This document shows, piece after piece, positions 9,662 through 64,000 of a stretch of 64,000 nucleotides of DNA (the stretch's first letter is position 1; each line of letters begins with the position of its first letter). The notes under the pieces are model-generated. The model made no database searches. It was not told the origin of the DNA and worked only from the letters and a program-made list of their open reading frames with translations. Source of the DNA: Candidatus Latescibacterota bacterium (GTDB taxonomy: Bacteria; Latescibacterota; UBA2968; UBA8231); contig OZ253462.1 of assembly GCA_965261395.1 (NCBI GenBank), positions 5,728,001-5,792,000 on the forward strand, written 5' to 3'. Both the position numbers and the translations under genes were made by a program.

Positions 9662-9669
9662 TCTACGTT

Positions 9670-10194: not shown

Positions 10195-10201
10195 TGCCGG
10201 G

Positions 10202-14231: not shown

Positions 14232-15802
14232 CGCGCGGAGGACTCGGCGCGCATCTCGCGGATGATACAGACGCGCAACTGCCCGGGGTATTCGAGTTGT
14301 TGCTCGAGCTTGCTGGTGATTTCGTCGGCGAGTTGTTCGGCATACGTGTCGTCCACCACCCCGCTATCGACTAAGACCCGAACCTCCTTGCCGTTTTGCA
14401 GGGCAAAAGCTTGCTTCACTCCCACGTAGTCAGCCGCGAGCTCCTCGATGTAATGCAAGCGGCGGATGTACTCCTCGACTTTTTCTTTGCGGGCACCTGG
14501 GCGGTGGGTGGAGATTTCGTTGGCAGCTTCGACTAGTACGGCAATGGCCGAGCGCGAGGGCGTGTGCTTGCTGTGGGTTTCGATGATCTGCACGACTTCA
14601 GGGCTTTCGCCGCACTTGCGGGTCAGTACGGCGCTGCTTTGCGCTGGGTCGTTGCCCAACTCGAAGTCCTGTGCCTTGCCTATGTCGTGCAAGAGACCGG
14701 CGCGGCGGGCCAGTGCTATATCGAGGTTGAGCATCTCGGCCATCATGCCGGCCAAAAACCCGACTTCCTTGCTGTGGACCAGCAAGTTTTGGCCGTAGCT
14801 GGTGCGGAAGCGGAGCTTGCCCAGAGTCTCCAATAGCGGCTCAGTCAAGTCGTGAATGCCGAGGTCGAAGGCGGCTTTGGAGCCGGACTCGCGGATCATC
14901 TCCTCGACGGTGCTACGGGACTTGTCGTACACTTCCTCAATGCGGCCGGGGTGGATGCGGCCGTCGCGGATGAGCGTTTCGAGAGTGTGTCTGGCCACCT
15001 CGCGGCGCAGTGGATCAAAGCCCGAGAGCATGACCATGCCAGGGGTATCATCGACGATGACTTCGACACCGGTGATCATTTCAAAGGAGCGGATGTTGCG
15101 GCCATCGCGACCGATGATGCGCCCCTTCATGTCGTCGAAGGGGATGGGCAGCACCGAAAGCGTACTCTCGACGGTCAGTTCACCAGCGAAGCGCTGGATG
15201 GAGCGGGTGATAATTTCCTTGGCCTCTAGGTTGGCCGTGGCCATCGCGGTGTCTTTGATCTCGTGGACCTTGCGGGCGGCGACTTGACGCGCGCCCTCCT
15301 CTAGCTGATCAACGAGCATGCGCCGGGCCTCTTGCTGGCTAATGCCGGCTAGGTCTTCCAGCAGCCGACTCTGCTCGAGGACGAGGGCCTGCACTCGCTT
15401 CTCGGCTGTAGTTATGGCCGCCTCGCGGTGGTCGAGGTCCTGCTCGTTCTTGAGCTGTTCGCGCTCCTTGCTGGTGAGCAGGTCTATTTTGCGCTCTAGT
15501 TGCTGTTCGCGCTCTAGCAGCTTGGCCGCGAGGTCGCGCAGCGAGCGCCGCTGCGTCTCTTGCTCCTTTTCCAGCGGGGCGCGCTCGCTGTGCCATTCGT
15601 CTCTCGCTTCTAGCAAAGCGTTTTTTTTCAGTACCTCGGCTTCTTGGTGAGCGCGGGCGACGATCTGATCGGCGGTGACTTGGGTGCTGCGCAGTCTGCT
15701 GTTGCGCGTCCGCTCACTCCCTAGCCAGCCGAGGAGACAGCCGCCGGCGAAAAAGGCGAAGGCAGAACAGATTAGGACTATATAGTCAAACCCATTAAAC
15801 AT
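14228..15802 (-). CDS. rny: Ribonuclease Y (partly degenerate HD domain)
   Basis: N-terminal TM helix, coiled coil, KH motif MKGRIIGRDGRNIR, LLHDIGK, RPGAR, YPGQ. Confidence 0.93.
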   Translation of the reverse strand: MFNGFDYIVLICSAFAFFAGGCLLGWLGSERTRNSRLRSTQVTADQIVARAHQEAEVLKKNALLEARDEWHSERAPLEKEQETQRRSLRDLAAKLLEREQQLERKIDLLTSKEREQLKNEQDLDHREAAITTAEKRVQALVLEQSRLLEDLAGISQQEARRMLVDQLEEGARQVAARKVHEIKDTAMATANLEAKEIITRSIQRFAGELTVESTLSVLPIPFDDMKGRIIGRDGRNIRSFEMITGVEVIVDDTPGMVMLSGFDPLRREVARHTLETLIRDGRIHPGRIEEVYDKSRSTVEEMIRESGSKAAFDLGIHDLTEPLLETLGKLRFRTSYGQNLLVHSKEVGFLAGMMAEMLNLDIALARRAGLLHDIGKAQDFELGNDPAQSSAVLTRKCGESPEVVQIIETHSKHTPSRSAIAVLVEAANEISTHRPGARKEKVEEYIRRLHYIEELAADYVGVKQAFALQNGKEVRVLVDSGVVDDTYAEQLADEITSKLEQQLEYPGQLRVCIIREMRAESSAR

Positions 15803-15882
15803 GGGTATCTCTTTCTCATTGGTCTCGACGCCCTTCGGGCATCGGGCCAGAGCACGGGGCGAACCCGGCTTAGAATACTGCT

Positions 15883-16197
15883 TCAGCTATCGGAACGGGG
15901 AACTTCCACTTCGGCGAAAAGATGCCCAAGCGAGGTGGCGAGCTGGGAAGTCCGCAAGGCGATATCGGCTTCGGCGGAAGCGTAGTCCTCCCGCAGGGAT
16001 AGGATTTCCTCCACCAAGCTCAGACTAGCCAAGATGGCCACTTGGAGCGGGGAGCCGCCTTTGACCTCACGCTTGATCTCGTGCATGCGCTCGTCCACCA
16101 TCTCGGCGAGCTTTTGCACGTGTTCGGCAGAGTGATCTTGATCGACTCCTAGGGTATAGTGCTTGTCGAATATTTTGACCACTACTTGGGACGACAT
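15883..16197 (-). CDS. zapA: Cell division protein ZapA
   Basis: VKIFDKHY...LAEMVDERM...VAILASL; pheT-zapB-zapA-rny synteny. Confidence 0.88.
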   Translation of the reverse strand: MSSQVVVKIFDKHYTLGVDQDHSAEHVQKLAEMVDERMHEIKREVKGGSPLQVAILASLSLVEEILSLREDYASAEADIALRTSQLATSLGHLFAEVEVPRSDS

Positions 16198-16211
16198 GCT
16201 AGACCCCTTTC

Positions 16212-16517
16212 TCAGACGGCTTGGTCCTGTTCGACCTGTTCGTTTTCACTGCTGACGATGCTGTCCAAGCGGCTGAGAAGCTGTTCGATGCGTCCCTTTA
16301 CCGCTTCTTGGTCCTGTTTGAACTGTTCGTTTTCACTGCTGGAGGCGCTGATTTTTTCTTTGAGGCTCTGGATATCTGCCTGCAGGGTATCATTTTTTTC
16401 TTTGAGGCTCTGGATCTGCCCATTCAGCTCGTCGTTTTCCTTGCGGAGCGTTTCGAGTACTCCCGTCAGGCGGTTGATGTGGTGTTCAAGGCGTGCAAAA
16501 TTTTCGTTTACATCCAT
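16212..16517 (-). CDS. zapB: ZapB-like coiled-coil protein
   Basis: Heptad-rich, RIEQLLSRL C-terminus, immediately upstream of zapA. Confidence 0.7.
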   Translation of the reverse strand: MDVNENFARLEHHINRLTGVLETLRKENDELNGQIQSLKEKNDTLQADIQSLKEKISASSSENEQFKQDQEAVKGRIEQLLSRLDSIVSSENEQVEQDQAV

Positions 16518-16545
16518 TGGGGTGGCTTCCTGATTGGGGTTGGGA

Positions 16546-18924
16546 TTAGCGCAAACGAGCGCCGAACCGCGCTTCGAGGCTCTTGAGCATCGAGGAGATA
16601 GCCGCGTCGGCCTGAGCGTCCTGCAACGTCTGGTCGCGATCGCGCAGACGGATGGCGAAAGCCACGCTCTTGTGGCCTTTTTCTATTTGATCCCCTTGAT
16701 AGAGGTCAAAAACCTCGATGGATTCGACGAGGCGGGGGGCGCTATTTCTCATGGTGGCGATGAGCTCGGCGGTTGCAGTGTCCGCGCGTACGACTACGGC
16801 TAAGTCGCGCTCGATCGGCGGAAATTTGGGGAGCGCGGAAAACGAGCGCTCCCGACCGTGCCAATGGCGCACTAACGCGGTGAACGATATTTCAAAAATA
16901 TGTACTTGGCGCTCTAAATCAAATGCCGCGCACAAGCTAGCTGAAACTTGGCCCAACCAGCCGAGGGGCTGGCCACCGAGGGAGACGCAGGCCGCGTGTC
17001 CCGAGCGGCATTCGGGGCGGTCGGCGGGAGTAAAGCTCAGGTCCCCCTCGCCTACTAGCGCTTCGAGCAAGCCCTTGAGGTCGAAGAAGTCGGCCTCGCG
17101 GGTGTCAGCCTGATAGGGAGATGCTGAGACGCGTCCCGACCACAGAGCTGCGAGATGCCAGCTTTCCTCGGGTCTCGCGTCCTTTTCAGCACCGGCGACA
17201 AAGCACTTGCCCAGCTCGAAAATGGCCACCCCCGCGGCTCGCTGGTTGAAGTTGCGACACGCCACATCCAAGAGGCTCGGCACCAAGGTAGTGCGCAAGG
17301 CGTCTTGGATGTCGGTCGGCGGGTTAGCCAAGCGGGCGGCTTGGTCTGCGGCATTGACTAGCTCGAGCCAGCGGGATTCGACGATCGTATTACTGACGAC
17401 TTCGTCCAAACCCAAGCCCAAGAGCCGCTGCCGAGCAACCTGCCTAAAGGTGTGCTCGGGGTCGCGTCGGGTGATCCAAGGACCAGATGCCTCCTGACGG
17501 CCCTCGATGCGGTCGAAGCCGTAGATGCGGCCGACCTCTTCGATGAGGTCGGCTGGGCGCTCCAGATCGGGGCGGAAGCTCGGGGCCATTACCACGAGGG
17601 GGTGCCCCGGCTCGACCCGGCAGCCGAGACGCTCGAGAATCTGGACGATAGCGGTGGAGTCTAACTTTGTAGCTAAGAGCTGGTTGGTGCGATCGACGCA
17701 GAGCGGGATTTGGCGGCATTGGCCGGGGCGAGGGTACACGTCTAAAGGATCTGGGGCGACCACGCCGCCGGCCAGTTCGGCGATTAGGCGAGCGGCGCGG
17801 TCAATCGCCTGCACCGGGGCATCCCAATCTGCACCGCGCTCAAAGCGCGTGGCCGCCTCGGTAAAAAGCCCTAGGCGAGACCGGGCCAACCGCACCCGGG
17901 ACGGTGCGAAATAAGCGCTTTCGAGTAGGATGTCAGTGGTGTCCGCCGATACCTGGGAATGGGCCCCACCCATGATCCCGGCTAGTGCTTGGGGCCGCGT
18001 CCCATCGGCGATGACCAGCATCTCTTCGTCGAGTTGGCACTGGGTGCCGTCGAGAGTTTCCAATATCTCGCCGGAGCGCGCCCGGCGGACGAGGATGCGT
18101 TGCTGGTCCAGTGTGTGTAGGTCGAAAGCGTGCAGAGGATGCCCCAATTCCAGCAACACGTAGTTGGTGATATCGACGATGTTGTTGATGGGGCGCTGAC
18201 CCACGGCTTGGAGTCGGCGCTGGAGCCACTGAGGCGAAGGGCTAACCTCGACACCGCGCACGACGCGGCCGACGTAACGCGGACAATCGTCCGGTGCCTC
18301 GATGTCGATCCGCACGTCTTCCGCTGTGGCCGGTCCGCTTTCAGGCACCTGTAAGTTGGGAAAACGGAGGGAGTTGCCGGTGAGCGCGTGGACCTCGCGG
18401 GCAATGCCCAAGAGGCTCAGGCAGTCCGGGCGATTGGGCGTAACCTCGAAGTCGATGACCACGTCGCCGAGCCCCGTAGCTGCGGCAAAGGGGGTGCCGA
18501 CCGGGAGGTCCTCGTCGAGCACCACAATGCCGTCGTGGTTATCGCTTAGCCCGAGCTCGTCTTCGGCACAGAGCATGCCCTCGGATGCGACGCCGCGGAT
18601 TTTGGCTTTTTTGATCTGCATGCCCCCGGGCAGCGTGGTGCCGGGTAGGGCGACGGCGACGGTTTGCCCGGCCGCGACATTGGGTGCCCCGCAGACGATG
18701 GTGTTGACCCCGGTCCCGACATCGACTTGGCAGACGGTCAAGCGATCGGCGTTTTCGTGTGAGCGACAGGTGTTGACGCGGCCGATGACAACGCCCTCGT
18801 AGCGCGCGCCGAGATCCTCGACGCCCTCGAATGCCAAGCCCGCCATGGTCAGGCGCTCGGCTAGCTCGGGCCAATCCCAGGGGAAGTCCACGTATTCCTT
18901 GAGCCAATTGTACGTGATTTTCAT
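16546..18924 (-). CDS. pheT: Phenylalanine--tRNA ligase beta subunit
   Basis: MKITYNWLKEYV, IVCGAPNV, TPNRPDCLS, RFERG, FDX-ACB C-terminus; start reset to ATG 18924. Confidence 0.98.
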   Translation of the reverse strand: MKITYNWLKEYVDFPWDWPELAERLTMAGLAFEGVEDLGARYEGVVIGRVNTCRSHENADRLTVCQVDVGTGVNTIVCGAPNVAAGQTVAVALPGTTLPGGMQIKKAKIRGVASEGMLCAEDELGLSDNHDGIVVLDEDLPVGTPFAAATGLGDVVIDFEVTPNRPDCLSLLGIAREVHALTGNSLRFPNLQVPESGPATAEDVRIDIEAPDDCPRYVGRVVRGVEVSPSPQWLQRRLQAVGQRPINNIVDITNYVLLELGHPLHAFDLHTLDQQRILVRRARSGEILETLDGTQCQLDEEMLVIADGTRPQALAGIMGGAHSQVSADTTDILLESAYFAPSRVRLARSRLGLFTEAATRFERGADWDAPVQAIDRAARLIAELAGGVVAPDPLDVYPRPGQCRQIPLCVDRTNQLLATKLDSTAIVQILERLGCRVEPGHPLVVMAPSFRPDLERPADLIEEVGRIYGFDRIEGRQEASGPWITRRDPEHTFRQVARQRLLGLGLDEVVSNTIVESRWLELVNAADQAARLANPPTDIQDALRTTLVPSLLDVACRNFNQRAAGVAIFELGKCFVAGAEKDARPEESWHLAALWSGRVSASPYQADTREADFFDLKGLLEALVGEGDLSFTPADRPECRSGHAACVSLGGQPLGWLGQVSASLCAAFDLERQVHIFEISFTALVRHWHGRERSFSALPKFPPIERDLAVVVRADTATAELIATMRNSAPRLVESIEVFDLYQGDQIEKGHKSVAFAIRLRDRDQTLQDAQADAAISSMLKSLEARFGARLR

Positions 18925-52214: not shown

Positions 52215-54311
52215 ATGAAAAAAAACCAGTTAATCCAGTGCCTAGCGCTAATTCTGATCGCCGCAGTTGCCCGCGCCGACGATCCTGAGCCCCGCTACCA
52301 AATGCCCCCGACCGAAGTCACGGCGACGCGTGCGCCCCGCGAGGGATTTGATCTGCCGCTTGCCACGACCGTGGTCGCGGATGTCGGGCGCGCGCGGCCC
52401 GGGCTCTCGCTGGCCGAGTTGCTGCGTCCGGTGCCCGGGCTGTTCATCGCCAACCGTAACAACCTCTCCCAAGGCGACCGGCTTAGCGTGCGCGGCTTAG
52501 GCGCGCGCGCGGCCTTTGGCGTCCGCGGGATCAAGGTCTTGCTCGACGGCATCCCCCTGACCATGCCCGACGGCCAGAGCCAGCTCAACAACCTCGACTT
52601 GGGGTCAACGGGCCGCATCGAGATCTTGCGCGGCCCCAGTTCTTCGCTGTACGGCAATGCGGGCGGCGGCGTGCTGGCGGCCCATACCCAAGCTCCGGCA
52701 GAGGCTGCTTGGCGCGTGGAGCCGCGCTTGATCGCTGGCAGCAATGGTCTGCTCCGCGCGCAGACGAGCTTTTCGGGTCGCGTCGCTAAAACCCACGTGT
52801 TCGCCAGCTTGTACGACCTGCGCAGCGAGGGCTACCGCGACTACGCCGACGCCCGCGCCCGCGGCCTCAACGCGCGCGTCGGCCACGCCCTCACTACCCA
52901 TACTGAGTTGACGCTCCTGCTGCATTTATACGATGCCCCTTATTTGTTCAATCCGAGTTCGCTTGCTGCGGAACCCGCGCGGACCAGCCCGCGTAGCGTC
53001 CGCGGATTCGTGGTGGGGCAGGGGGCATCCAAGCAGGTTCACCAGGGCCAAGGCGGCATCCGCCTCGAATATCGCCCGCCGCATGCGCCGCACCACCGCG
53101 CGTCGAGTCTCGTGCTGTACGGCGTTGGCCGCGCGCTCAAAAACCCCATCCCAGGCCGCATCGTCGAGCTCGACCGCCGCGCCGGCGGCCTGCGCACTGA
53201 GCATCAATTTGCTTGGGCCAGTACGCGCCTTGTGACCGGCCTCGACTTGGACTTCCAGCGCGACGACCGCCGCGAGTTCATCAACGAGGGCTTGCCCGAG
53301 GACGTGCGCGTGGACGACGAGCGCGTATTCGAACTCGTGCAATACGGTGAGGAGCAAATAAATCAAGAGGAACAAGTGCAGAGCTTCGGCCCCTTTGTCT
53401 CCTTGGAACAAGACTTGGGTACTGCGCTGACTGCGACTGTGGGCGGCCGCTATGACCGCTATCGATTTGCCGTGGATGACCACGCGCGCGACATGGGCCA
53501 GTTCAGTCCGATGGCGGGCGTGGTGTACCGCCTCGACCCCTTCTCCCGCTGGTACGCCCATGTGGCCACGGCCTTCCAGACGCCCACCACCTCTGAGTTG
53601 GGCAACCGGCCCAGCGGCGAGGGCGGCTTTAATCCGGATTTAGGCCCTGAGCGCGTCCTTGGGTTGGAGACGGGCTTGCGCCGCCACGTGCGCCGGGCGC
53701 GCGTGGATCTGGAGGTGGCTCTGTACCAGCTACAGATCGCCGATGCGCTGATTCCCTTTCAGATCGAGAGTGAAGACAGCGAGGAGATTTACTTCCGCAA
53801 CGCCGGCCAAGCGCGCAATCGAGGGTTGGAGCTCTCGCTCTCGGCAGTGCCGCATCCCGGACTACGGACTACTCTCGCGTACACTTTTGGCGATTATGTT
53901 TTTGAGGACTACGAGGTTGAGACCGCCGGTGAACTTGTTCAGCTTGCTGGCAACGAGGTTCCCGGCGTGCCGCGCCACCGGCTCTTCGCCGCGCTGAGCT
54001 ACGACAGTCCGCAGGGCCTGTTTAGCGAGGTCGAATTAGAGCGGGTCGGCCGCTACTGGGCCAACGATTTCAACGGCCCTCCGTCCGGAAGCGACGCCTC
54101 GCCCGACGAGTTTTTCAACCGCGAGTACCTGCGGGTCGATCTGCGCTTGGGGATTGACTATCGCGCTGCGAGGGCCTTTGTCGCGGTCGATAACTTGTTT
54201 GGTGCCCAGTACAACGGCTCGGTGGTGCCCAACGCCTTTGGAGGGCGCTTCTTTGAACCCGCTCCGGGCCGCACTTGGCGCTTGGGGATTGGGGGCTGGA
54301 TTGGGGGTTGA
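52215..54311 (+). CDS. TonB-dependent receptor (YncD-like)
   Basis: EVTATR TonB box, RGLGARAAFGVRGI, RIEILRGPSSSLYGNA.GGV, AFQTPT, DNLF...FEPAPGR. Confidence 0.92.
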   Translation: MKKNQLIQCLALILIAAVARADDPEPRYQMPPTEVTATRAPREGFDLPLATTVVADVGRARPGLSLAELLRPVPGLFIANRNNLSQGDRLSVRGLGARAAFGVRGIKVLLDGIPLTMPDGQSQLNNLDLGSTGRIEILRGPSSSLYGNAGGGVLAAHTQAPAEAAWRVEPRLIAGSNGLLRAQTSFSGRVAKTHVFASLYDLRSEGYRDYADARARGLNARVGHALTTHTELTLLLHLYDAPYLFNPSSLAAEPARTSPRSVRGFVVGQGASKQVHQGQGGIRLEYRPPHAPHHRASSLVLYGVGRALKNPIPGRIVELDRRAGGLRTEHQFAWASTRLVTGLDLDFQRDDRREFINEGLPEDVRVDDERVFELVQYGEEQINQEEQVQSFGPFVSLEQDLGTALTATVGGRYDRYRFAVDDHARDMGQFSPMAGVVYRLDPFSRWYAHVATAFQTPTTSELGNRPSGEGGFNPDLGPERVLGLETGLRRHVRRARVDLEVALYQLQIADALIPFQIESEDSEEIYFRNAGQARNRGLELSLSAVPHPGLRTTLAYTFGDYVFEDYEVETAGELVQLAGNEVPGVPRHRLFAALSYDSPQGLFSEVELERVGRYWANDFNGPPSGSDASPDEFFNREYLRVDLRLGIDYRAARAFVAVDNLFGAQYNGSVVPNAFGGRFFEPAPGRTWRLGIGGWIGG

Positions 54312-54425
54312 GTCGCGGTCTGCGGATTGACTCAGACAAGGTAAATAGCTTGATTTTAGAATACTCCGGGAACAAAATTTGGCCGTATGTGTCAGTTCAA
54401 TCCGTTGACCTAAGTAGGTGGCATC

Positions 54426-55583
54426 GTGATCGAGGTGTACCTCGACTACAACGGCTCCTCCCCGCTCGATCCCCGCGTGAGCAAGGCCATGTGGCCTGCT
54501 CTCGCCGAGTGGTACGGCAATGCCTCCTCTACGCATCGGTTCGGTCGGCGGCAAGCTGCTGCGGTTGAAGATGCTCGCGCGCACGTCGCGTCACTAGTCG
54601 GGGGTAGGCCATCGCATGTCGTTTTCACGGCCGGGGCTACCGAAGCCAACAACCTCGCCCTCAGCGGAATTGTTGCTAGCCGGCCAGCGGATCGGGGACG
54701 AATTCTTGTGTCCTCGGTGGAACACGCCTCGGTACGGGAGACGGCTCGGTGGTTGAGTGATCAATTGCTCGCCGAGGTAGATGCGATCCCCGTGACCTGC
54801 GGTGGGGCCATTGACCTCGACGCGCTTGAGGCTCTGCTCGGCGACGATGTCCTGCTCGTGTCGGTTATGGCCGCTAATAGCGAAACCGGCGTGCTGAATC
54901 CGGTGGCGGAGATCGCCGAGCGCGTTCATGCCGCCGGTGCCTTGTTCCACTGTGACGCGACCCAATACGCGGGCCGACTCCCCTTCGATCTCTCCGACAT
55001 AGGTGCTGATTTGGTGTCACTTAGCAGCCACAAAATCTGTGGTCCCGGCGGTGTCGGTGCCCTCGTCACCGTGAAATCCAGCGGGCGGCTGCGCCCCATC
55101 ATCCACGGCGGCGGCCACGAAAGAGGCCTGCGTTCCGGGTCGTTGAACGTAGCCGGTATCGTTGGATTCGGAGCCGCCGCTGAGATTGCCGTCGAGGAAC
55201 GGATGCAGGAGACGGATCGGATACGCCCCCTCCGCGACCGCCTTGTCGCTGAGTTGAAGGGCCGCCTGACCGGGGTCGATGAGAATGGGGACATTGACTG
55301 CCGCCTCCCCAACACGGCAAATATCCGCTTCGCTGGTGCCGATGCCGAGGCAGTAGTCGCCAGCATGGACCCGGTGGCAGTCTCGACCGGCAGCGCGTGT
55401 AGTGCCGGTGCGATTGAACCCTCAGCGGTACTGCTGGCGATGGGGCTGTCGCGGGAAGCAGCCTTTGAATCTGTGCGGTTTAGCTTGGGTCGGTTTACCA
55501 CGGCGGAGGAAATCGAGATCGCAGCTCAGAAAACTGTCGCTGCGGTCGAGTACGTGCGGGCTATGAACGGAGGAGAGGTGTAA
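54426..55583 (+). CDS. sspA: Cysteine desulfurase, SspA/DndA-type sulfur donor for DNA phosphorothioation
   Basis: YLDYN, GATEANN, SSHK (PLP Lys), GGGHERGLRSGS, STGSACS; TAATG overlap with the next gene. Confidence 0.85.
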   Translation: MIEVYLDYNGSSPLDPRVSKAMWPALAEWYGNASSTHRFGRRQAAAVEDARAHVASLVGGRPSHVVFTAGATEANNLALSGIVASRPADRGRILVSSVEHASVRETARWLSDQLLAEVDAIPVTCGGAIDLDALEALLGDDVLLVSVMAANSETGVLNPVAEIAERVHAAGALFHCDATQYAGRLPFDLSDIGADLVSLSSHKICGPGGVGALVTVKSSGRLRPIIHGGGHERGLRSGSLNVAGIVGFGAAAEIAVEERMQETDRIRPLRDRLVAELKGRLTGVDENGDIDCRLPNTANIRFAGADAEAVVASMDPVAVSTGSACSAGAIEPSAVLLAMGLSREAAFESVRFSLGRFTTAEEIEIAAQKTVAAVEYVRAMNGGEV

Positions 55584-56584
55584 TGCGATTGGTCGAGGCG
55601 GCCAAGCCGACTTTCGCTCGGCACGAGACGTTCCATCCCCGCTATGGCTGGTTTCGCAAGGCGTACGCCGTGACGAAGCGCGACTCTCAGATATTTACCC
55701 GTGTAGATGCCCCGGTCTTGATTGGGGTCGGTAAGAACATGGTCCGGTCCATTCGGTTTTGGGGCCTCGCCGCCAAGCTGATCGCCGAGGATCAGCAAGG
55801 ACCGGGGTTGACTCCGACGGAGTTTGGCCACGCGCTGTTTGGTGAGTCGGGCTGGGATCCATATATGGAGGATCCGGGTACGCTCTGGTTGCTGCATTGG
55901 CAGTTATTGGCACCGCCGTCACTTCTACCTGTGTGGTGGATCATATTCAATGAGTTCCACCCGGTCGAGTTCACTGACGAAGTGCTTGACCACGCCGTCG
56001 CTGTGGGGCTGGAATCGGTAGGGGAGTGGGCGAAGCAGCCTCATCCTTCATCCGTAAAGAAGGACGTCAGTGCTCTGTTGCGGACCTATGCACCAGCCGA
56101 GCGCTCAAAACGCTCGGGAAACAGCATTGACGACCTCCTCGATTGCCCCCTGCGCGAACTGGGCTTGATCAGACGATCCCAAGCCACCGGCAGTTACCGA
56201 TTCGTCCTCGGAGCGAAACCAACGCTGCCGCCGGAGATTGTGACCTATGCCGTGCTCGATTACCTCGCTCGCACTGACACCGGAGGGAACACGGCCACCC
56301 TCAGCCGCCTAGCGCACGAGCCTGGGGCACCGGGCCATGCTTTCAAGCTGGCGGAAGCGGATCTGTTCGCCGCGCTTCAACAGACGGCGACGACCACGAA
56401 TGCGCTGGAACTTGCCTCGCCGACCGGCGCGCCTCAACTATCTTGGTCCAGCGACCCAGCGGCTGTGGCTAATGAGGTGCTTTCGTCCTACTACGACATT
56501 ACCCCAGATACCGAAGACAGCGAAGGCAAGCAACTTGAGTTGTTTGACCTAGAGGAGAATGCCGCCACCGTGGGGCCAAGCTGA
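55583..56584 (+). CDS. sspB: DUF4007 protein, SspB-like nickase
   Basis: FARHETFHPRYGWFRKAY, GVGKNMVRSIRFW, DPYMEDPGTLWLLHW, CPLRELGLI. Confidence 0.85.
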   Translation: MRLVEAAKPTFARHETFHPRYGWFRKAYAVTKRDSQIFTRVDAPVLIGVGKNMVRSIRFWGLAAKLIAEDQQGPGLTPTEFGHALFGESGWDPYMEDPGTLWLLHWQLLAPPSLLPVWWIIFNEFHPVEFTDEVLDHAVAVGLESVGEWAKQPHPSSVKKDVSALLRTYAPAERSKRSGNSIDDLLDCPLRELGLIRRSQATGSYRFVLGAKPTLPPEIVTYAVLDYLARTDTGGNTATLSRLAHEPGAPGHAFKLAEADLFAALQQTATTTNALELASPTGAPQLSWSSDPAAVANEVLSSYYDITPDTEDSEGKQLELFDLEENAATVGPS

Positions 56585-59500
56585 TGGTAGCACTAGCAGA
56601 CTATATTGCCGTTGTCGGGCGATTTGCTCGCTCGGCCAGCCTAGAGCGCGACATCGCCCGGCGCGAGCCACTCGATGGGTATGTGGTCACCGCCCGAGCG
56701 CTCGATGTGGTGGAGCGCATCGCCGCCACGGCTGCAAACGGCGCTGCGGGTGGAGCGTGGTCGTTGACCGGCCCTTACGGTTCGGGCAAATCATCGCTCG
56801 CTCTGCTTCTCGACGCCGCATTCGGCGAGCGCGATGCCACGCGAGCCGCTGCGACCGAACTCATTGAAGCGACCTCGCCGGCCGTAGCCGACCTCCTCGT
56901 TCGCGCACATCAAGCTCGTGGAACCGATGAGCGGGGGTTCCACCGCGCCGTAGTCACCGCGAGCCGCGAGCCGCTGCACTACACTCTCCTGCGAGCGCTT
57001 CAGTCCGCCGTCATCCGGGCCTATGGAACCATCCCCTCGACGCGCACATTCCGAGCGGCTAAAACGCTCAAGACTGCACTCTCCGACGCCGAATCCGATG
57101 ATCCGCGTCGAATCGGCCCCTCACCGGCGGACTTGCTCGAAGTGGCCCGCTGCTTGGCCGAAGACGCCCCGTTGCTCCTCATCATCGACGAATTCGGCAA
57201 AAACCTCGAAGCGATCAGCGATGGCTCGGATGCCGACCCCTATCTCCTGCAACAACTCGCCGAAGCCGGACAGGGAGCCGGTCTCCCGATCTTCGCGCTA
57301 ACGCTACAACACCTGTCCTTCGAGGATTACCTCGTCGGTATTGATGGCCCGCGACGGCGGGAATGGGCAAAAGTCCAGGGCCGGTTTGAAGATGTCGCGT
57401 ACATCGAGTCTGCCGCTCAGACCCGCGCCCTGATCGGAACGGTTTTCGAGATTGACGACGATCTGCAACCCCGCATCAGACGATGGGCCGAGACCCATGC
57501 TAAAGAGATGCGTGCCCTCGGAGTAGCCGACCTCGCCACCGCCGCTACGGTTGAGGCGTGCTATCCGCTGCACCCACTTGCCGCCCTAGTGCTCCCGGAA
57601 CTTTGCAGCCGCTACGGACAGCACGAGCGCACTCTCTTCTCGTTCCTGACCGGCGCTGACTCGGCCACTGCCGCTTCGTTCTTGTCCGCTACCTCCTTGC
57701 CGGATCGGGGCGTGTTGCCATCGCTCGGCTTAGATGCTGTCTATAACTACTTCGTCGCGGGTGGAGCGGGCGTGGTTGGCTACTCGCAGCGGTGGTCGGA
57801 GATCGCCACCCGGCTGCGCGACGCCCATGGCCTGACGGAGAGCCAAACGAAGCTGGCCAAGTCGATCGCCATCCTCAACCTCGTATCCGCTGGCGGAGCC
57901 GCCCGCGCCTCCGCCCAAGTACTCGACATCGCTCTCAACGGCGCAGCAAAAGCCCTAACAAGCCTGCAAGACGCCGGTATCGTCACCTATCGCGATTTTG
58001 CCGACGAGTTCCGAATTTGGCATGGCACGGACGTTGACATTCGCGGGCTTATCAAGGCCGCTCACGCCAAAGTGCAGCGTCAACCGCTAGTGGAAATCCT
58101 CGCTGCAATCCATGAACCCGAACCCGTAGTCGCGGCCCGGCACAGTGCCGAACACGACATCCTGCGCGTGTTTGCCCGCCGCTACGTTGACGGCACCGAG
58201 CCGGTCGCTCCGCTAGACCCGTTCTCGCCCTACGATGGGGAGGTTCTGCTGACGGTCGCGCCGGACGCCATGCCAGCGCTCGCCCAAACTGGCGAAAATG
58301 CAAAACCTGTCGTCACGGCCATCCCGGACGATCTTTCCCTCCTCGACGATGCGGCCCGCGAGGTTGCAGCCGTTGCCGATGTCCTCGACCACGATGGCGT
58401 AAAAGACGACTGGGTTGCGCGGCGCGAAATCGGCGAACGACTCGCCCAAGCTGAGGCCGCGTTGGGCCATGCTATAGAAGCCACGTTCAACGCCAAGGTT
58501 TGCCGCTGGGTCCTGCTTGGTCCGGAAGGGCCAATTAAGCTTCCAGCCGGACGGGGCAGTGCCGCGCTCTCTGCGGCAGCCGACCAAGCTTACTCAGCGA
58601 CGCCGACTGTGGGCAACGAGATGCTCAATCGCACGGTCGTCACCTCGCAGGGGGCCAAGGCTCGGCGCATGTTGCTCGAAGCGATGATCGAATTCGGTGA
58701 TCAGATCGACCTTGGCCTCGAAGGACATGGCCCCGAAGTCGCTATGCACCGTGCGTTTCTCAAAGAGACCGGGATGCACGGTCGTGATCAGCGCAATGAG
58801 GTCATGGTCTTCCGCTCGCCGACTGATAAGAAACTGCGGCCGGCATGGGACCTTCTCGAATCCGAGTTCAACCGCGCCCGCACCCGTCGAATCAATCTTG
58901 CAGACATTTACGCAGCCCTGCTGTCGCCGCCGATTGGGATGAAGGCCGGGGTGATTCCCGTCTTCGTCACGGTTGGGCTGCTAGCGTCCAGCAACGAAGT
59001 CGCAATCTACGAGCACGGCACGTTTAGGCCGCTTCTCACCGATGATCTCTCCGAGCGGATGGTTCGCAACCCCAAGCATTTCGACATCAAGCACTTTGCC
59101 AACACGTCCGGTGCGCGACGCCAAGTCATTGACGCGCTCGCCTCCCGGCTTGAGGTCCGCCCGCGCTTCCGCAAGCACCGCGTCTCCAATGTCCTCGCTG
59201 TCGTCGGCGAACTCGTGTCGCAGGTAAGACAGCTCGACAACTATACGCGGCGCACGCGCAACCTTTCGGACGCCGCTGTCGCCTTCCGCGAGGTCCTCTC
59301 CACCGCTGTGGAACCCGACGAATTGCTCTTTGCCGCGATCCCCGAGGCCCTCGGCTACCATCCCGTCCCGGCCGAGACCAAGACCTACAGCAAGGCGAAC
59401 GAGTATGCGGACGCAGTAGCTGGTGCGCTAGAAGAATTGACCGGCTCCTACCAGCGCCTTGTAGATGAGATGCTCGAAGAATTGTTTTCTGTCAGTGGAG

Positions 59501-60015
59501 AAACCTCCCGCTTCACTATTGCGGAACAAGCCGCTGCACTTGATGGCGAGGTACTCGATCCTACGGTGCGCGCATTCGTTCTCGCGCTCGCCAACGATGG
59601 CATTGATTCCGATATTGATTGGATTCAGACCATTGCGACCGTCGTCGCCAAGAAAGCCCCAGCCGAGTGGACGGATGCCGACCGCGATCGCTTCTGCCAA
59701 GAGTTGTCTTATCAAGTCGCGTCTTTCCAGCGGCTAGTCGCTCTCCACGCCGACCGCCGCGCTGCTGGAGTTGCCGACGCTATGCGGTTGACCGTCACTC
59801 GCGCTGACGGCACTGAGTACGTCCGCCTCGTCGGGGTTGACCAAAATCAGCGAGACGCCTGCGAGGGGGCTCTCGACGCTACGCTTGCGCGCCTTACTGA
59901 CCTTACCGGCTCCCCAGCCCGTGCCCAGCAAACACTCCTTGCGTTGCTCGGCGAACGGCTCCTACCCGCGCCCGAACAGGACGCACCTACTGAAAAGAGG
60001 AGACAACATGGCTGA
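56584..60015 (+). CDS. sspC: Large P-loop ATPase, SspC (BrxC-related)
   Basis: RSASLERD, GPYGSGKS Walker A, LLIIDEFGK Walker B, EWAKVQGRF, YPLHP, QHERTLFSF, PPIGMKAG; TGATG coupling. Confidence 0.85.
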   Translation: MVALADYIAVVGRFARSASLERDIARREPLDGYVVTARALDVVERIAATAANGAAGGAWSLTGPYGSGKSSLALLLDAAFGERDATRAAATELIEATSPAVADLLVRAHQARGTDERGFHRAVVTASREPLHYTLLRALQSAVIRAYGTIPSTRTFRAAKTLKTALSDAESDDPRRIGPSPADLLEVARCLAEDAPLLLIIDEFGKNLEAISDGSDADPYLLQQLAEAGQGAGLPIFALTLQHLSFEDYLVGIDGPRRREWAKVQGRFEDVAYIESAAQTRALIGTVFEIDDDLQPRIRRWAETHAKEMRALGVADLATAATVEACYPLHPLAALVLPELCSRYGQHERTLFSFLTGADSATAASFLSATSLPDRGVLPSLGLDAVYNYFVAGGAGVVGYSQRWSEIATRLRDAHGLTESQTKLAKSIAILNLVSAGGAARASAQVLDIALNGAAKALTSLQDAGIVTYRDFADEFRIWHGTDVDIRGLIKAAHAKVQRQPLVEILAAIHEPEPVVAARHSAEHDILRVFARRYVDGTEPVAPLDPFSPYDGEVLLTVAPDAMPALAQTGENAKPVVTAIPDDLSLLDDAAREVAAVADVLDHDGVKDDWVARREIGERLAQAEAALGHAIEATFNAKVCRWVLLGPEGPIKLPAGRGSAALSAAADQAYSATPTVGNEMLNRTVVTSQGAKARRMLLEAMIEFGDQIDLGLEGHGPEVAMHRAFLKETGMHGRDQRNEVMVFRSPTDKKLRPAWDLLESEFNRARTRRINLADIYAALLSPPIGMKAGVIPVFVTVGLLASSNEVAIYEHGTFRPLLTDDLSERMVRNPKHFDIKHFANTSGARRQVIDALASRLEVRPRFRKHRVSNVLAVVGELVSQVRQLDNYTRRTRNLSDAAVAFREVLSTAVEPDELLFAAIPEALGYHPVPAETKTYSKANEYADAVAGALEELTGSYQRLVDEMLEELFSVSGETSRFTIAEQAAALDGEVLDPTVRAFVLALANDGIDSDIDWIQTIATVVAKKAPAEWTDADRDRFCQELSYQVASFQRLVALHADRRAAGVADAMRLTVTRADGTEYVRLVGVDQNQRDACEGALDATLARLTDLTGSPARAQQTLLALLGERLLPAPEQDAPTEKRRQHG

Positions 60016-60856
60016 CAACACGCGCCACATTTGTGGCATCTCAGGGGGCAAGGACTCCAGCGCTCTCGCTGTGTACATGCGCCGCGAGGTTCCGGACATG
60101 GAGTACTTTTTCTGCGACACCGGGGCTGAGCTGCCCGAGACCTACGAGTACTTGACCCGGCTTGAGGTCGTACTCGGCAAGCCGATAGCTAGGCTCAATG
60201 CCTCGCGTGGCTTTGACCACTGGTTTGAGGTGTTCCGAGGTGCGCTGCCGTCCCCGCAGATGCGGTGGTGTACCAGAAACATGAAGATCAAGCCGATTGA
60301 GGAGTGGGTCGGCGATGAGCCGGTCGTCTCGTACGTCGCCATTCGCGCCGACGAGGCCAACCGCAAAGGCTACATCTCCACCAAGCCCAACATCAAGACT
60401 CGCCTCCCGTTTGTCGAAGACGGCGTGACGCACGACGATGTCCTCCGCATCCTCGAAGATGCTGGCATTGGCCTTCCCGAATACTATGAGTGGCGGACTC
60501 GTTCTGGGTGCTACTTCTGCTTTTACCAGCGCAAAGCCGAGTGGGTCGGCCTTGCCGAGCGCCATCCCGAACTTTACGAGCGCGCTATCGCCATCGAACA
60601 GAAAGTGCTGCGCGACGCCGGTGTTGACGGCGACGCCGACTTCTCCGACCGAGCTATGCGCGGTCGCCAATACACATGGTCGGGTGGCGAAACGCTCGTT
60701 CAACTTCTCAAGCGCCGCGAGGAAATTCTCGCACGTCACAAAGATGCTATGGACCGCGCCGGCAAGAAGAAGACCAACGTCCCGTTGGTTGAAGCACTCG
60801 CTGAAGCACTGGACGATGAGGACGATACTGAGGCTTGTACGGTGTGTTCGCTGTGA
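60008..60856 (+). CDS. sspD: PAPS-reductase-family protein, SspD/DndC-like
   Basis: ISGGKDS PP-loop, DTGAELPETY, RWCT, SGCYFCFYQ, C-terminal CTVC; start reset to ATG 60008, overlapping the sspC stop. Confidence 0.88.
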   Translation: MADNTRHICGISGGKDSSALAVYMRREVPDMEYFFCDTGAELPETYEYLTRLEVVLGKPIARLNASRGFDHWFEVFRGALPSPQMRWCTRNMKIKPIEEWVGDEPVVSYVAIRADEANRKGYISTKPNIKTRLPFVEDGVTHDDVLRILEDAGIGLPEYYEWRTRSGCYFCFYQRKAEWVGLAERHPELYERAIAIEQKVLRDAGVDGDADFSDRAMRGRQYTWSGGETLVQLLKRREEILARHKDAMDRAGKKKTNVPLVEALAEALDDEDDTEACTVCSL

Positions 60857-60895
60857 GGAATTGTTGACGCCGATCTGTAAGGGACTGGAGGAGAG

Positions 60896-61141
60896 ATGCC
60901 GTTAAACGAAAGAAAAATAATCGAGATTATCTCTGAAGAATGTGCCGGAATAGACGAACGGTACAACGGCTACAGGGAAGATATCGGCGATGTGATTACC
61001 GACATTCTTATGTATGAACAGGGCCATCGCGTCTCGAAAACGAATATCCAAAAGGATATAAATGAAAGATTCGATAAAGCCGCTCGGTCCCTTGTCAAAA
61101 AACGCGACTCCCATAAGAGTTCGGAAGAATTGGACTTATGA
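60896..61141 (+). CDS. 81-aa helical hypothetical protein coupled to the SMC-like ATPase
   Basis: GGAGGAG RBS; ATGA overlap with the next gene. Confidence 0.75.
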   Translation: MPLNERKIIEIISEECAGIDERYNGYREDIGDVITDILMYEQGHRVSKTNIQKDINERFDKAARSLVKKRDSHKSSEELDL

Positions 61142-62230
61142 AGCTGATTCGTGCGAAGTTTCAAAACTTTCGGTTGCTCCGGGATTTGGAGCTTGAGTTT
61201 GCTAGCGATCCTGACAAAAATCTGACGGTCATCCGAGCGGCAAACGAGTCGGGTAAAACGACGATTCTCCATGCCTTGCAATGGGCACTCTACGGAGACG
61301 ATGCATTGCCCAACAATGGCAACGGGTTCCGCCTATATCCCATTGACTGGGATACAAGATATGATACGCGCGTTTCAATCACTGCGACAGTCGAATTTAA
61401 GGTCTCAACCTATAGGCGGGTGGGTAGTGAAACACGTGAGACTGAACGGCATTACATACTTGAGCGATCCGCGTTCGAGGTTGTGGACAGTCAGTCGCCC
61501 CGTCCCAGCTCGACCGTGAAACTGTTCGAGGTGGACGATAAAGGGGCGCATTCCTTTGAAGAGCCTGAAACGATTATTAACGAGGAAATGCCGTTCGAGT
61601 TGCGCGATGTCTTTTTCACGGATGGCGATAGGGCGCTAAGATTTATTGAAGCCCATGGCAGCCCAGCAATCAAGCGTGAGCGCGTGGCAAACGCCATTCG
61701 CTCTCTTCTCGGTCTAGGTATCATTGAGAACGCGATCGGCCATGTCAGAAAGTCGGAAGCCTCGGCAACAAAGGAATCGAAAAAGGTCAGTGGCAGTGAT
61801 GAGTTGACAGCTATCGCTTCGCAGCTCGAAAAACTTGAAGAATACTCAAACAAACTGGAATGCAGACTCAAAGACGCGAAACAGCAGTTCAATGCGAATA
61901 GCGAGAAGGTGAGTGAAACCGAGAGCAAGATCATGGTAGCACTTCAGAAAGGCGATGAGGAAAAGCTAAAAAAAGATATTGAAAACACGCGGAGCGAAAT
62001 CAAAGAACTCGATAATAAGTTAGTTGATGCGAAAAAAGAGCATTCGGAATTGTTCCGCAGCCATTCTATTGCGAGAGACCTGCTCGACCCCCTTCTCAGC
62101 CGAGCTCATGAGAGACTCGAGGAGTATGACCAAGTTAAGATTACGGATGCGACGATTCCGGTCCTTCAGGAGCGACTCTCGGAAGAGATCTGCATTTGCG
62201 GCGAAGCACTGAAGTCCGATAATCCAGACG
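61138..62230 (+). pseudogene. SMC/Rad50-like (DndD/PbeC-like) ABC ATPase with CxC hook, truncated by IS
   Basis: FQNFR, ANESGKTT Walker A, WALYG, FFTDGD Q-loop region, coiled coil, ICICG; native frame ends at the IS left end (62231), the LWCMNWCFFRLIG tail is IS-encoded; no signature motif or Walker B. Confidence 0.85.
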
Positions 62231-63415
62231 GGCTTTGGTGCATGAATTGGTGTTTTTTTCGGTTGATCGGTTGAATAAAAACAGGCTCCTCAGTAGATTG
62301 AGCACGACTTTCGCCAAAAAACCCATGCTTTCTCGTCCAAGGAACCTGTCATGGCCAACCTATCGTCTTGCCCCTCTTCCGTCAAGCCTGGTCGCTCGCC
62401 TCGCCGTCGCTCCAACGTCGTGTACCGGGTACGTAATTGGGCCGACTATGAGGCCGGGCTGCAACAGCGCGGTAGTCTGACGGTGTGGTTCACGCCCCAG
62501 GCCGTCGAAGCTTGGTATTATCAAGGGCCGCCTCAGCGGGGGGCGCAATATACCTTTTCGGAGGTCGCCATCCAAACGGCGTTGACGCTGCGTCTTTTGT
62601 ATCACTTGCCCCTACGCCAAACCGAGGGGTTTGTCGCTTCGGTGTTGGCCCTGATGGGCTTGGATCTGCGGGTGCCCGATCACACGACCCTGTCGCGCCG
62701 TCAGGCGGGTTTAGCCGTGGCGTGGCCGCCCCAGCGGGGAGACCAACCGATGCACTTGGTGGTGGATTCGACCGGGCTGAAAGTGTATGGCGAAGGCGAA
62801 TGGAAGGTGCGTCAGCACGGCTGGAGCAAGCGGCGCACGTGGCGCAAATTGCACCTCGGGGTTAATGAAGCCACCGGCGAGATCGTCGCGCAGACCTTGA
62901 CGACGAATAGCCACGATGATGCGGGGCAGGTGGAGCCGTTGCTGGCACAGATCGAGGCCCCCGTGGAGGCGTTGGGCGGCGATGGGGCCTATGACAAACG
63001 CAAGGTGTTCAAGGCGTTGGCCGCGCCCGAGCAGGGGGCACCTATTCATCCGATCATTCCGCCGCGCAAGGACGCCAAAATCGAGCAACATGGCAACACC
63101 AACGCCGAGCCGTTGCCCCGCGATGAGACGATTCGAGCCATCCGCAAACGGGGCCGTCGAGGTTGGAAACACGAGAGCGGCTATCATCGACGCTCGGTAG
63201 CCGAAACGCAGATAGGCCGCTACAAACAGATACTTGGTGACACCTTGCGCACCCGAACCCTAACCAACCAACAGACCGAAGCGCGGTTGGGCTGTGCCTT
63301 GCTCAACCGGATGCGGGCGTTGGCGAAACCTGAGTCCTATCCGCTAACCAAAAAAGCGTAAATCACACGCGAAAGAAGCCAACACGGCCCCGACCGGTTT
63401 TCATGCAACAAAGCC
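62231..63415 (+). mobile_element. IS5-family (IS903 group) insertion sequence, 1185 bp
   Basis: Terminal inverted repeats GGCTTTGGTGCATGAA (62231-62246) and TTCATGCAACAAAGCC (63400-63415), 15/16 match; flanks ATCCAGACG and ACTCCTCGT are not duplicated. Confidence 0.93.
62351..63361 (+). CDS. IS5-family DDE transposase
   Basis: YRVRNWADY..GL.QRGSLTVW, PDHTTLSRR, VDSTGLK, WRKLHL, GDGAYD, YHRRSVAET. Confidence 0.95.
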   Translation: MANLSSCPSSVKPGRSPRRRSNVVYRVRNWADYEAGLQQRGSLTVWFTPQAVEAWYYQGPPQRGAQYTFSEVAIQTALTLRLLYHLPLRQTEGFVASVLALMGLDLRVPDHTTLSRRQAGLAVAWPPQRGDQPMHLVVDSTGLKVYGEGEWKVRQHGWSKRRTWRKLHLGVNEATGEIVAQTLTTNSHDDAGQVEPLLAQIEAPVEALGGDGAYDKRKVFKALAAPEQGAPIHPIIPPRKDAKIEQHGNTNAEPLPRDETIRAIRKRGRRGWKHESGYHRRSVAETQIGRYKQILGDTLRTRTLTNQQTEARLGCALLNRMRALAKPESYPLTKKA

Positions 63416-63686
63416 ACTCCTCGTGGTCGCTTACGGCCAGCCGATACCAGAAGAATGGACTGTCAGTTGGCCTGCGTCGAAGGAAGAGCTTCTTGACCGG
63501 CTGAAATCAAGGATTCTCCGCGGGTACAAGAAGGAGTGCCGACCGCGACTCAGACCGGAACACCCGGAGGGCGGCAAACCACTGACAGATGCAGTGAACA
63601 GGGAAGCAGAAAAACTGACAGGAAGGCAACACCGCCGATTCGAACGGGAGTTGGAAAAGATTGAGGACGCGGCGAAGGCCGACTGA
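63416..63686 (+). pseudogene. Probable 3' remnant of an unidentified gene cut by the IS
   Basis: Frame open from the IS right end (LLVVAYGQPIPEEW...DAAKAD*) with no RBS; does not resemble the missing ABC-ATPase C-half. Confidence 0.5.
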
Positions 63687-63715
63687 GTTTACGGACAACG
63701 GGAGACAAGGAGACG

Positions 63716-64000
63716 ATGCAACTCTATCCGGCAATCAAGTCGCGCATGGGCGACTGGGACTATTATATCGTTCGCATGACCATGCGCGAAGTGGCACGCG
63801 AGGTACAACTCGCGAGCGATCTGTGGGAGGACAAGACGTTGAGCGACGCCATTCAGCGAGTACTCGACGAGTCACGAGTCAAACAACAGATTGTGAATTT
63901 CCTGTCGCGCCGAAGCGATCGCTTTTTTTCTTCTTTGGTCGTGGCAGCTATCGGCGGTAATCCGACTTGGACACCCCACCAGTCCCGATTCCGAGACACT
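63716..64000 (+). CDS. DGQHR/DndB-like protein, 5' part (runs off the window end)
   Basis: Not in the ORF track. AGGAG RBS, then MQLYPAIKSRMGDWDYYIVRMTMREVA...AIQRVLDESRVKQQIVNFL...RFFSSLVVAAIGG; QR motif and FFssLVVA as in DGQHR-family N-termini; the DGQHR motif itself would lie beyond the window. Confidence 0.75.
   Translation, partial: MQLYPAIKSRMGDWDYYIVRMTMREVAREVQLASDLWEDKTLSDAIQRVLDESRVKQQIVNFLSRRSDRFFSSLVVAAIGGNPTWTPHQSRFRDT

Follow-up and report, generated by a model that had tools for sequence, protein, structure and literature searches.

A Latescibacterota SspABCD phosphorothioation operon with the probable remains of two stacked partner cassettes

In the Ssp type of DNA phosphorothioation, SspABCD is described as making single-strand phosphorothioate (PT) marks, and SspE as sensing PT via a ParB-like N-terminal domain and nicking DNA (PMC8092258, PMC12707154); SspFGH, in the account of PMC8092258, damages unmodified DNA. 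PbeABCD is reported to halt virus replication in a PT-dependent manner, with pbeB, pbeC and pbeD essential and pbeA partly required (PMC6459918), and a 2025 review lists three branches of PT restriction—DndFGH/SspFGH, SspE and PbeABCD (PMC12707154). Among 2,678 sspBCD loci, 2,211 were counted without sspE and sspFGH, and the authors asked about other restriction partners (PMC8092258); likewise, 320 of 553 pbeAC pairs were termed 'solitary', with no dndCD within 10 kb (PMC6459918). Here we analyze a stretch of 64,000 nucleotides from a Candidatus Latescibacterota genome (the window, G000:C1:5728001-5792000), with emphasis on an operon region that begins at position 54426 of its + strand. An original prediction, made from the letters of this stretch, had described the region as an Ssp operon joined to a Pbe/Dnd-like module composed of a small protein, an ATPase with a CxC motif and a protein with a DGQHR motif. 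Our analysis points, with good probability, to a defence island at a conserved chromosomal site that holds a whole SspABCD operon and, behind it, the remains of two stacked partner cassettes.

Domain searches were performed with Pfam, PADLOC models and NCBIfam, and profile-profile comparisons with hhalign. The modification module identified in this way is the one known from SspABCD-SspE (Xiong et al. 2020, as related in PMC8092258, PMC9646914 and PMC12707154), with end-to-end PADLOC matches. The first gene, sspA (54426-55583, +), encodes a cysteine desulfurase of 385 aa (PADLOC SspA E 3.8e-130, model positions 1-374 of 374; Pfam Aminotran_5 E 2.2e-71), residues 1-384 of which align at 92% with the proteins of two loci from the same genus, L099 and L100—the latter being the closest relative locus, found in a record titled Candidatus Latescibacterota metagenome-assembled genome (MAG) and lying on the same contig as the locus L011. 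It is followed by sspB (55583-56584, +), which encodes a DUF4007 protein of 333 aa (Pfam DUF4007 E 5.6e-84; PADLOC SspB E 7.6e-104), and by sspC (56584-60015, +), the gene of a large ATPase of 1143 aa (PADLOC SspC E 0, 1045.9 bits, model positions 2-1101 of 1104) with the Walker A motif GPYGSGKS at residue 63 and a full-length match at 89-92% in L099/L100. The last gene, sspD (60008-60856, +), specifies a PAPS-reductase-like sulfurtransferase of 282 aa (PADLOC SspD E 5e-111, model positions 1-276 of 277) with an SGGKDS motif and a Pfam PAPS_reduct match. One base is common to sspA and sspB, as it is to sspB and sspC, and sspD begins before sspC ends, its ATG at 60008 preceding the sspC stop (60013-60015), so that the earlier description of four translationally coupled genes corresponding to SspABCD agrees with both the domain matches and the overlaps at every junction. 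We take the module as intact because all four proteins align over their full length with those of close relatives, at 89-98% identity. Proteins 76-98% identical to this SspD were also found in MAGs titled Latescibacterota, Acidimicrobiia, Gemmatimonadota, Gammaproteobacteria, Alphaproteobacteria and Acidobacteriota, among others (L117-L196), and many of the MAG names point to sponge symbionts; such high identity across diverse MAGs suggests a wide horizontal spread of SspD.

The genes behind sspD were compared with those of related loci in a survey of one-genome-per-species contigs, anchored separately on the DGQHR protein (the best 80 of 99 relatives), the CxC ATPase (18 loci, two of them on the same contigs as in the DGQHR-anchored set) and SspD (80 loci, the best among at least 549 relatives, with an SspD 76-98% identical to that of the window). 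Neighbours were scored by tblastn with proteins of the window and of its relatives, at E <=1e-5 and with >=50% coverage for long proteins. After a gap of 39 nt, sspD is followed by an 81-aa gene (60896-61141, +) in the position of pbeB, which, as predicted, is co-directional with the operon; it overlaps the start of the CxC ATPase gene (61138) by 4 nt. Its product matched no family in Pfam, PADLOC or NCBIfam, and a homolog immediately precedes the CxC ATPase gene in 17 of the 18 CxC-anchored loci. The ATPase gene (61138-62230, +) is a pseudogene that retains the N-terminal 364 codons of a PbeC-like CxC ABC ATPase (PADLOC PbeC E 7.5e-43, model positions 7-343 of 644). A CIC motif at residues 352-354 is what had been read as an 'ICICG hook' of an SMC-like ATPase; the protein is indeed an ABC-type ATPase with this motif, but only its N-terminal half, 364 of 708 codons, is present. 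Full-length proteins of 708 aa, with PbeC as the best PADLOC match, occur in close relatives—residues 1-365 of the L011 protein match the window's fragment at 93%—and the C-terminal half, i.e., the rest of the 708 aa, was found nowhere in the whole genome. In these relatives, the ATPase gene is followed by a partner gene of 153-164 aa in the position of pbeD, which is deleted in the window. This family gave no PDB sequence match at E up to 10; a profile search with it returned 1646 proteins, the best 120 of which are ~153 aa long, have no Pfam domain and carry either no name or the label 'hypothetical'.

The order and sizes of these genes are those reported for DndCDEA-PbeABCD (PMC6459918), with PbeB (66 aa), PbeC and PbeD (152 aa) corresponding to the 81-aa protein, the CxC ATPase and the protein of ~153 aa; PbeABCD has also been described as a CxC ABC ATPase-DndE system consisting of a small protein, a CxC ABC ATPase and a DndE cognate (PMC10853773). 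The reported system differs in being paired with Dnd, whereas the set studied here is paired with Ssp, lacks PbeA in this lineage, has a truncated PbeC and contains PbeB and PbeD equivalents that are assigned by position and size only (81 aa, and 153-164 aa in relatives). The PbeA of PbeABCD, an HKD/PLD nuclease fused to an SF2 helicase, is not found at the window locus, and it is likewise absent from L099, L100 and a third locus of the same genus, L101; a fourth CxC locus lacking PbeA ends at a contig end. In the more distant relatives, a full PbeA (PADLOC PbeA E 1e-195) stands in front as in PbeABCD—14 of the 18 CxC-anchored loci carry such a PLD and SF2-helicase protein of 719-766 aa (E ~1e-195)—and the sole PbeA match in the window's genome, 29% identical, lies at 3.10 Mb. 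We are reasonably confident that the first cassette is a PbeA-less, PbeBCD-like set made up of the 81-aa protein, the CxC ABC ATPase and the 153-164-aa partner.

The truncation of the ATPase gene coincides with an insertion sequence (IS) of 1185 bp (62231-63415, +) that the original prediction did not mention, and which interrupts what had been read as one run of co-directional genes. Its transposase (62351-63361; NF033579 312.7 bits, cut-off 140) has Pfam DDE_Tnp_1_5 and DDE_Tnp_1 matches, and the element ends in 16-nt terminal inverted repeats. The genome contains 20 copies at >=99% identity and a further 7 at ~82%; a 9-bp target duplication flanks 16 of the 20 near-identical copies, with none at the window's copy, and the DDE transposase, the inverted repeats and these duplications together place the element in the IS5 family. 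Alignment to L100 locates the joint precisely: window positions 60801-62231 correspond to L100 positions 9662-11094, and 63416-66761 to 14887-18232, both at ~92.6-92.7% identity, leaving 3792 bp of L100 without a counterpart in the window and the element in their place. In the relative, this missing stretch holds ATPase residues 365-708, a 164-aa gene, a 213-aa gene and residues 1-514 of a 607-aa gene. The window thus contains an IS-joined deletion, which could have arisen either by recombination between two copies of the element or as an adjacent deletion during transposition. A copy at genome position 6144113, also without a duplication, was considered as a holder of the lost segment; its flank resembles the reversed left flank of the window at 10 of 12 nt with no further similarity, and we took this as chance. 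Two other copies in the genome (2164519-2165703 and 2340581-2341765 of G000:C1), identical and in opposite orientation, have swapped halves of their 9-bp duplications, which points to an inversion of ~176 kb by recombination between them.

Could the element and the deletion be assembly artefacts of a repeat-rich genome? Near-identical copies of an element, here numbering 20, are a classic cause of misjoins. Contigs from public sequencing runs (X1, X2, X3 and X7) were aligned to positions 60800-64000. Contigs of X1 and X3, from two other studies, enter the element by only 28-29 nt on each side, which falls below the 31-letter rule and makes them compatible with the joints only. In run X2—possibly the source sample—one contig covers 60800-62346, reaching 116 nt into the element, and another covers 63293-63523, and both joints are thereby bridged. 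Together with the absence of the missing sequence from the whole genome, these contigs make an artefact very improbable. One contig of X7 shows 4 differences over positions 60820-62231 (1.4 kb) and then continues for 603 letters unlike the element, the first 30 of which agree at 28 positions with the uninterrupted CxC gene of L100; a second X7 contig has 2343 letters upstream of 63416. An uninterrupted allele thus exists in a very close strain, and the allele with the element looks recent. Three studies contained 98% of the sampled words of the stretch, which also speaks against an artefact; the RNA runs X17-X20 contained 6-16%.

Beyond the element lie the remains of the second cassette. These begin with p607 (63416-63686, +), a remnant of 89 codons from the 3' end of a gene that is 607 codons long in relatives. 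It shares 86% identity with residues 515-607 of the protein encoded at L011:8148-9971, and residues 1-514 were found nowhere in the whole genome. The full-length 607-aa family is a second DGQHR protein, since the DGQHR motif is invariant in 15 sequences and hhalign matches the family to the 451-aa DGQHR family described below (probability 97.4%, E 9e-12, 353 columns). The remnant, overlooked in the original prediction, lies between the element and an intact gene for a 451-aa DGQHR-domain (DndB-like, ParB-superfamily) protein, which starts at 63716 and runs past the window end (64000) to 65071 on the + strand. The 451-aa gene had been recognized correctly as DGQHR/DndB-like: it passes TIGR03187 (105.9 bits, cut-off 58.85), has the motif at residues 111-115 and matches the DndB models of Pfam (E 5.9e-30) and PADLOC (E 8e-20), but it stays far below the cut-off of the DndB equivalog TIGR03233 (74.1 versus 328 bits). 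The family has 557 representatives at E <=1e-30 among the 1.84 billion cluster representatives of the library searched, and a PDB sequence search with it returned chance-level matches only. Next, beyond the window, comes an SNF2 helicase gene (65064/65091-66788) of ~565-574 aa, depending on the start codon; its product (SNF2-rel_dom E 2.6e-47; Helicase_C E 4.1e-17) has GLGKT at 149 and DEAH at 246 and reached no named equivalog.

The missing member of this set could be recognized from the related loci, where the small gene immediately ahead of the DGQHR gene encodes a GIY-YIG nuclease. Of 61 open reading frames (ORFs) found, the 51 aligned (140-275 aa kept, two duplicates dropped) share the consensus GVY...YVG...R...H...E...N, with Pfam GIY-YIG matching 26 and GIY_YIG_2 matching 19 of these members (E <=0.01). 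The gene is present in L011, a 96%-identical relative, and is deleted in the window, in which the p607 tail and the full-length DGQHR and SNF2 genes are what survives of the cassette. On this basis, we regard it as likely that the second cassette combines a GIY-YIG nuclease and an SNF2 translocase with one or two DGQHR (ParB-like) proteins.

None of the known effectors was found to complete the operon. The locus is flanked by a TonB-dependent receptor on one side and, to the right of the SNF2 gene, by an RsmB/F-type rRNA methyltransferase, a dioxygenase and other housekeeping genes on the opposite strand. No ORF of the locus, including those beyond the window, had a PADLOC match to SspE—models that recognized a true SspE in L168 (E 1e-235) and L194 (E 2e-214)—and no protein combining DUF262 (GmrSD_N) and DUF1524 (GmrSD_C) was found at the locus (5.78-5.79 Mb), the genome's GmrSD_C matches lying at 5.35, 5.37, 5.04 and 1.60 Mb, at least 400 kb away. 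The cassettes therefore differ from SspABCD-SspE, with which the second one shares the idea of an effector that combines a ParB-superfamily protein and a nuclease: here, DGQHR, GIY-YIG and SNF2 are separate genes, and the DUF262 and DUF1524 protein is missing. Another parallel is SspABCD-SspFGH (PMC8092258), in which a restriction partner made of several genes serves SspBCD and a single modification module can have a second partner stacked on it as well, as appears to be the case here; SspH, however, is described with an FtsK/SpoIIIE-like C-terminus, and no ORF downstream of sspD has such a Pfam domain, a statement that rests on domain content and on every ORF up to the housekeeping genes being accounted for. 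PglZ was not found at the locus either, matches in the genome being restricted to 4.00 Mb and 0.004 Mb (BrxL was not searched for separately). The expectation that sspE, an FtsK-like SspH or pglZ would not lie just beyond the window was thus borne out, the next genes being the continuation of the DGQHR gene, the SNF2 gene and housekeeping genes, and these flanks, together with the PglZ positions, also support the earlier argument against BREX type 4. The PglZ-domain genes themselves (G000:C1:4002500-4003012 and G000:C1:3899-4471) possibly belong to BREX or Pgl loci and are unlinked to the island. A scan for promoters and terminators over 54000-64000 gave signals at the level of shuffled sequence.

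The original prediction had proposed to look for a recurring linkage of sspABCD with the CxC and DGQHR sets, and the survey reveals one. SspB, SspC or SspD lies within 10 kb in 73 of the 80 DGQHR-anchored loci, three of the seven exceptions being contigs shorter than 3.4 kb, and SspBCD accompanies the CxC ATPase in 17 of 18 loci. In the DGQHR-anchored set, a GIY-like gene stands directly upstream in 59 loci, the SNF2 family is present in 56, the 607-aa gene in 15 and the CxC set in 5; 61 of these loci have a co-directional sspD upstream, and in 29 of the 61 the DGQHR gene starts no more than 800 nt after it. The CxC-anchored set contains the 153-164-aa partner in all 18 loci, the small protein in 17 and the DGQHR family in 3. 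Anchoring on SspD gives the same picture from the other side, with the DGQHR family only in 23 of 80 loci, CxC only in 20, both in 4 and neither in 33, i.e., 47 loci with at least one cassette. The two gene sets are therefore separable cassettes, and the view of the 81-aa protein, the CxC ATPase and the DGQHR protein as a single set does not hold: CxC is found in only 5 of 80 DGQHR loci and DGQHR in 3 of 18 CxC loci. The hybrid nature proposed for the system survives in that the pairings recur beside SspBCD, but as two cassettes, in a broken copy and with PbeA absent. Identity to the window's proteins was also compared between genes across the loci, a crude measure taken over related genomes that are non-independent. 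SspC and SspD rise and fall together (rho 0.80, n=66), as do DGQHR and SNF2 (rho 0.71, n=48), whereas DGQHR and SspD show no correlation (rho -0.01, n=67), which fits modules that are exchanged as units and repeatedly land beside some Ssp operon.

The same data bear on two other explanations. One holds that the DGQHR protein corresponds to DndB in the Ssp setting and regulates the modification operon without belonging to an effector, SNF2 and GIY-YIG being unrelated neighbours. The motif and the DndB matches given above are indeed common to both proteins, the gene comes right after the modification genes, and 24 of the 80 loci lack the SNF2 family. However, the protein differs from DndB in its score on the equivalog and in being linked to Ssp, a nuclease and a helicase rather than to dndCDE; moreover, it co-varies with SNF2, follows a GIY-YIG gene in most loci and is duplicated as the 607-aa paralog within the same cassette in some of them, all of which renders a mere regulator improbable. 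The other explanation, to which we give slightly more weight but which we still consider unlikely, is that the cassettes are independent defence systems gathered beside Ssp in a defence-island hotspot and make no use of PT. In its favour, four genomes within one genus carry differing island content at one and the same site, another ATPase (AAA_15/AAA_21, PD-T4-4_A-like) stands at the island end in relatives, CxC systems are reported also without Dnd genes (PMC10853773), and the DGQHR and SspD families do not co-vary. Against it, the linkage counts are too regular for mixed islands, and the short distance between sspD and the DGQHR gene in 29 of 61 loci could accommodate no more than the small GIY-YIG gene. 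Furthermore, the same cassettes stand beside two Ssp clades that are ~50% different in SspD, which argues for dependence on Ssp function rather than shared descent.

Other gene sets were observed behind sspD or within the island in related loci. In L121 (10918-15391), sspD is followed by a ResIII/SF2 helicase of ~540 aa, a GHKL ATPase of ~645 aa (HATPase_c_3, with a weak MzaB match) and a protein of ~300 aa (with a weak DrmC/PLD match); judged by ORF sizes, with domains scanned in L121, the trio is also present in L138, L141, L146, L147, L160, L161 and L172, and it may be a further Ssp partner. In L129 (10859-14822), the genes after sspD encode a 200-aa protein, a 719-aa DndB-like protein and a 418-aa ResIII helicase, a set that L157, L164 and L184 resemble (domains scanned in L129). 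A Binatia MAG (L104, 12638-14781) carries, between the PbeD-position gene and sspD, a GmrSD_N/NsnA-like protein of 425 aa and a protein kinase of 295 aa (PD-T4-6-like). The 518-aa AAA_15/AAA_21 ATPase (PADLOC PD-T4-4_A E 1.8e-32) follows SNF2 in L011 (13105-14661) and L087 (13127-14683) and is absent from the window, in which the right flank resumes at 66820.

Returning to the reading of the locus as an Ssp operon with two partner cassettes, SspABCD in the intact relatives would mark the cell's own DNA with single-strand PT, and we infer that the cassettes would rely on this mark to tell self DNA, which they would leave alone, from unmarked invading DNA, which they would attack. The DGQHR proteins would likely act as sensors of the PT mark or of nucleoside triphosphates, in analogy to the ParB-like N-terminal domain of SspE; SNF2 and/or the CxC ATPase may provide a DNA-scanning motor, and the GIY-YIG protein would be the cutter of unmarked DNA. 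The 3.8-kb deletion associated with the element would then have removed from the window the C-terminal half of the ATPase, its partner, the GIY-YIG nuclease and most of the long DGQHR gene. Modification without effective restriction is to be expected in the window because no recognizable nuclease gene remains there; the island most likely still modifies DNA, with restriction lost, or weakly maintained via the surviving DGQHR and SNF2 pair. Taken as a whole, this explanation—an Ssp operon with a decayed two-cassette composite, PT-dependent in relatives—is the one that we favour with fair confidence.

Several observations weigh against it. PADLOC gave no match for either the small protein or the PbeD-position protein, and hhalign comparison of the latter family with canonical DndE (seven DndE, this phylum) yielded a probability of 0.2%. 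The DGQHR family compared with SspE reached a probability of 0.8%, with nothing in common beyond the DGQHR/DGQQR motif, and DndB, a named DGQHR protein, is described as a regulator rather than an effector (PMC4507180). CxC systems are also reported to occur without PT genes (PMC10853773). The loci behind the linkage counts were collected by means of the effector proteins and include related genomes that are non-independent, and PT modification in this organism is predicted from its genes. Finally, ParB-superfamily domains can themselves be nucleases (PMC3632139); on that account, a description of the window's island as restriction-dead is uncertain, and the DGQHR and SNF2 pair may still act.

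A variant of the proposed mechanism treats an intact island of the L100 type not as two stacked systems but as a single chimeric PT-dependent restriction machine. In such a machine, the CxC trio without PbeA would draw on the SNF2 motor and the GIY-YIG nuclease in place of the PbeA helicase and HKD nuclease, and the DGQHR proteins would be a shared reader of the Ssp mark. The composite loci offer a hint in this direction through a complementary pattern: those with PbeA (L031, L047, L056, L114, L145 and L156) have the SNF2 family in 0 of 6 within the fetched flank—which, in L145, ends 590 nt after the DGQHR gene—and those without PbeA (L099 and L100) have both SNF2 and GIY-YIG in 2 of 2. We regard a single machine as a tentative option, less probable than two stacked cassettes.

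The history of the island can be followed within the genus. L099, L100 and L101 carry it between the same flanking genes as the window, with varying contents: L100 has both cassettes, with the 607-aa gene; L099 has both, with a different GIY and DGQHR pair (55% identity) and a similar SNF2 (88%); L101 has the CxC set only; and the window has the deleted form. Between the PbeD-position gene and the GIY-YIG gene, L099 retains a 120-nt copy of the sspD 3' end (12730-12849, 88% identical), as expected if the PbeBCD-like cassette entered later, separating sspD from an older GIY-DGQHR-SNF2 cassette; the copy looks like a scar of such an insertion. Among the 31 genomes of the genus, 15 have an SspD homolog (E <=1e-20), 8 the DGQHR family and 4 a close CxC ATPase, two copies of which are full length, one split and one truncated, the last being that of the window. 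The split copy, in L101 (10001-12210; G143:C1:1874731-1876937), is broken into two pieces that cover residues 1-168 and 166-708.

Every part of this island is of a known kind; what is new are the pairings and the PbeA-less composite, of which the window copy is a decayed example. Pairing of Ssp with PbeABCD, or with GIY-YIG, DGQHR and SNF2, was not described in the literature searched, although Krishnan et al. 2020 and the supplementary tables of three papers (PMC10853773 Data S1, PMC8092258 Table S2 and PMC6459918 Data 3-4) lay outside that search and may show such neighbourhoods. As regular neighbours of Ssp, the GIY-YIG/DGQHR/SNF2 and PbeABCD-type cassettes suggest candidate answers for the partnerless sspBCD loci and the solitary pbeAC pairs, with at least two further candidate partner sets in related loci, and the candidate partners are directly testable by means of the genes of intact relatives. 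In addition, a single genus provides a natural experiment, in which the island is found whole, with a split CxC gene, and with an IS-linked deletion of its nuclease-bearing middle—a pattern that would be expected if restriction carries a cost and its genes are lost while those for modification are kept.

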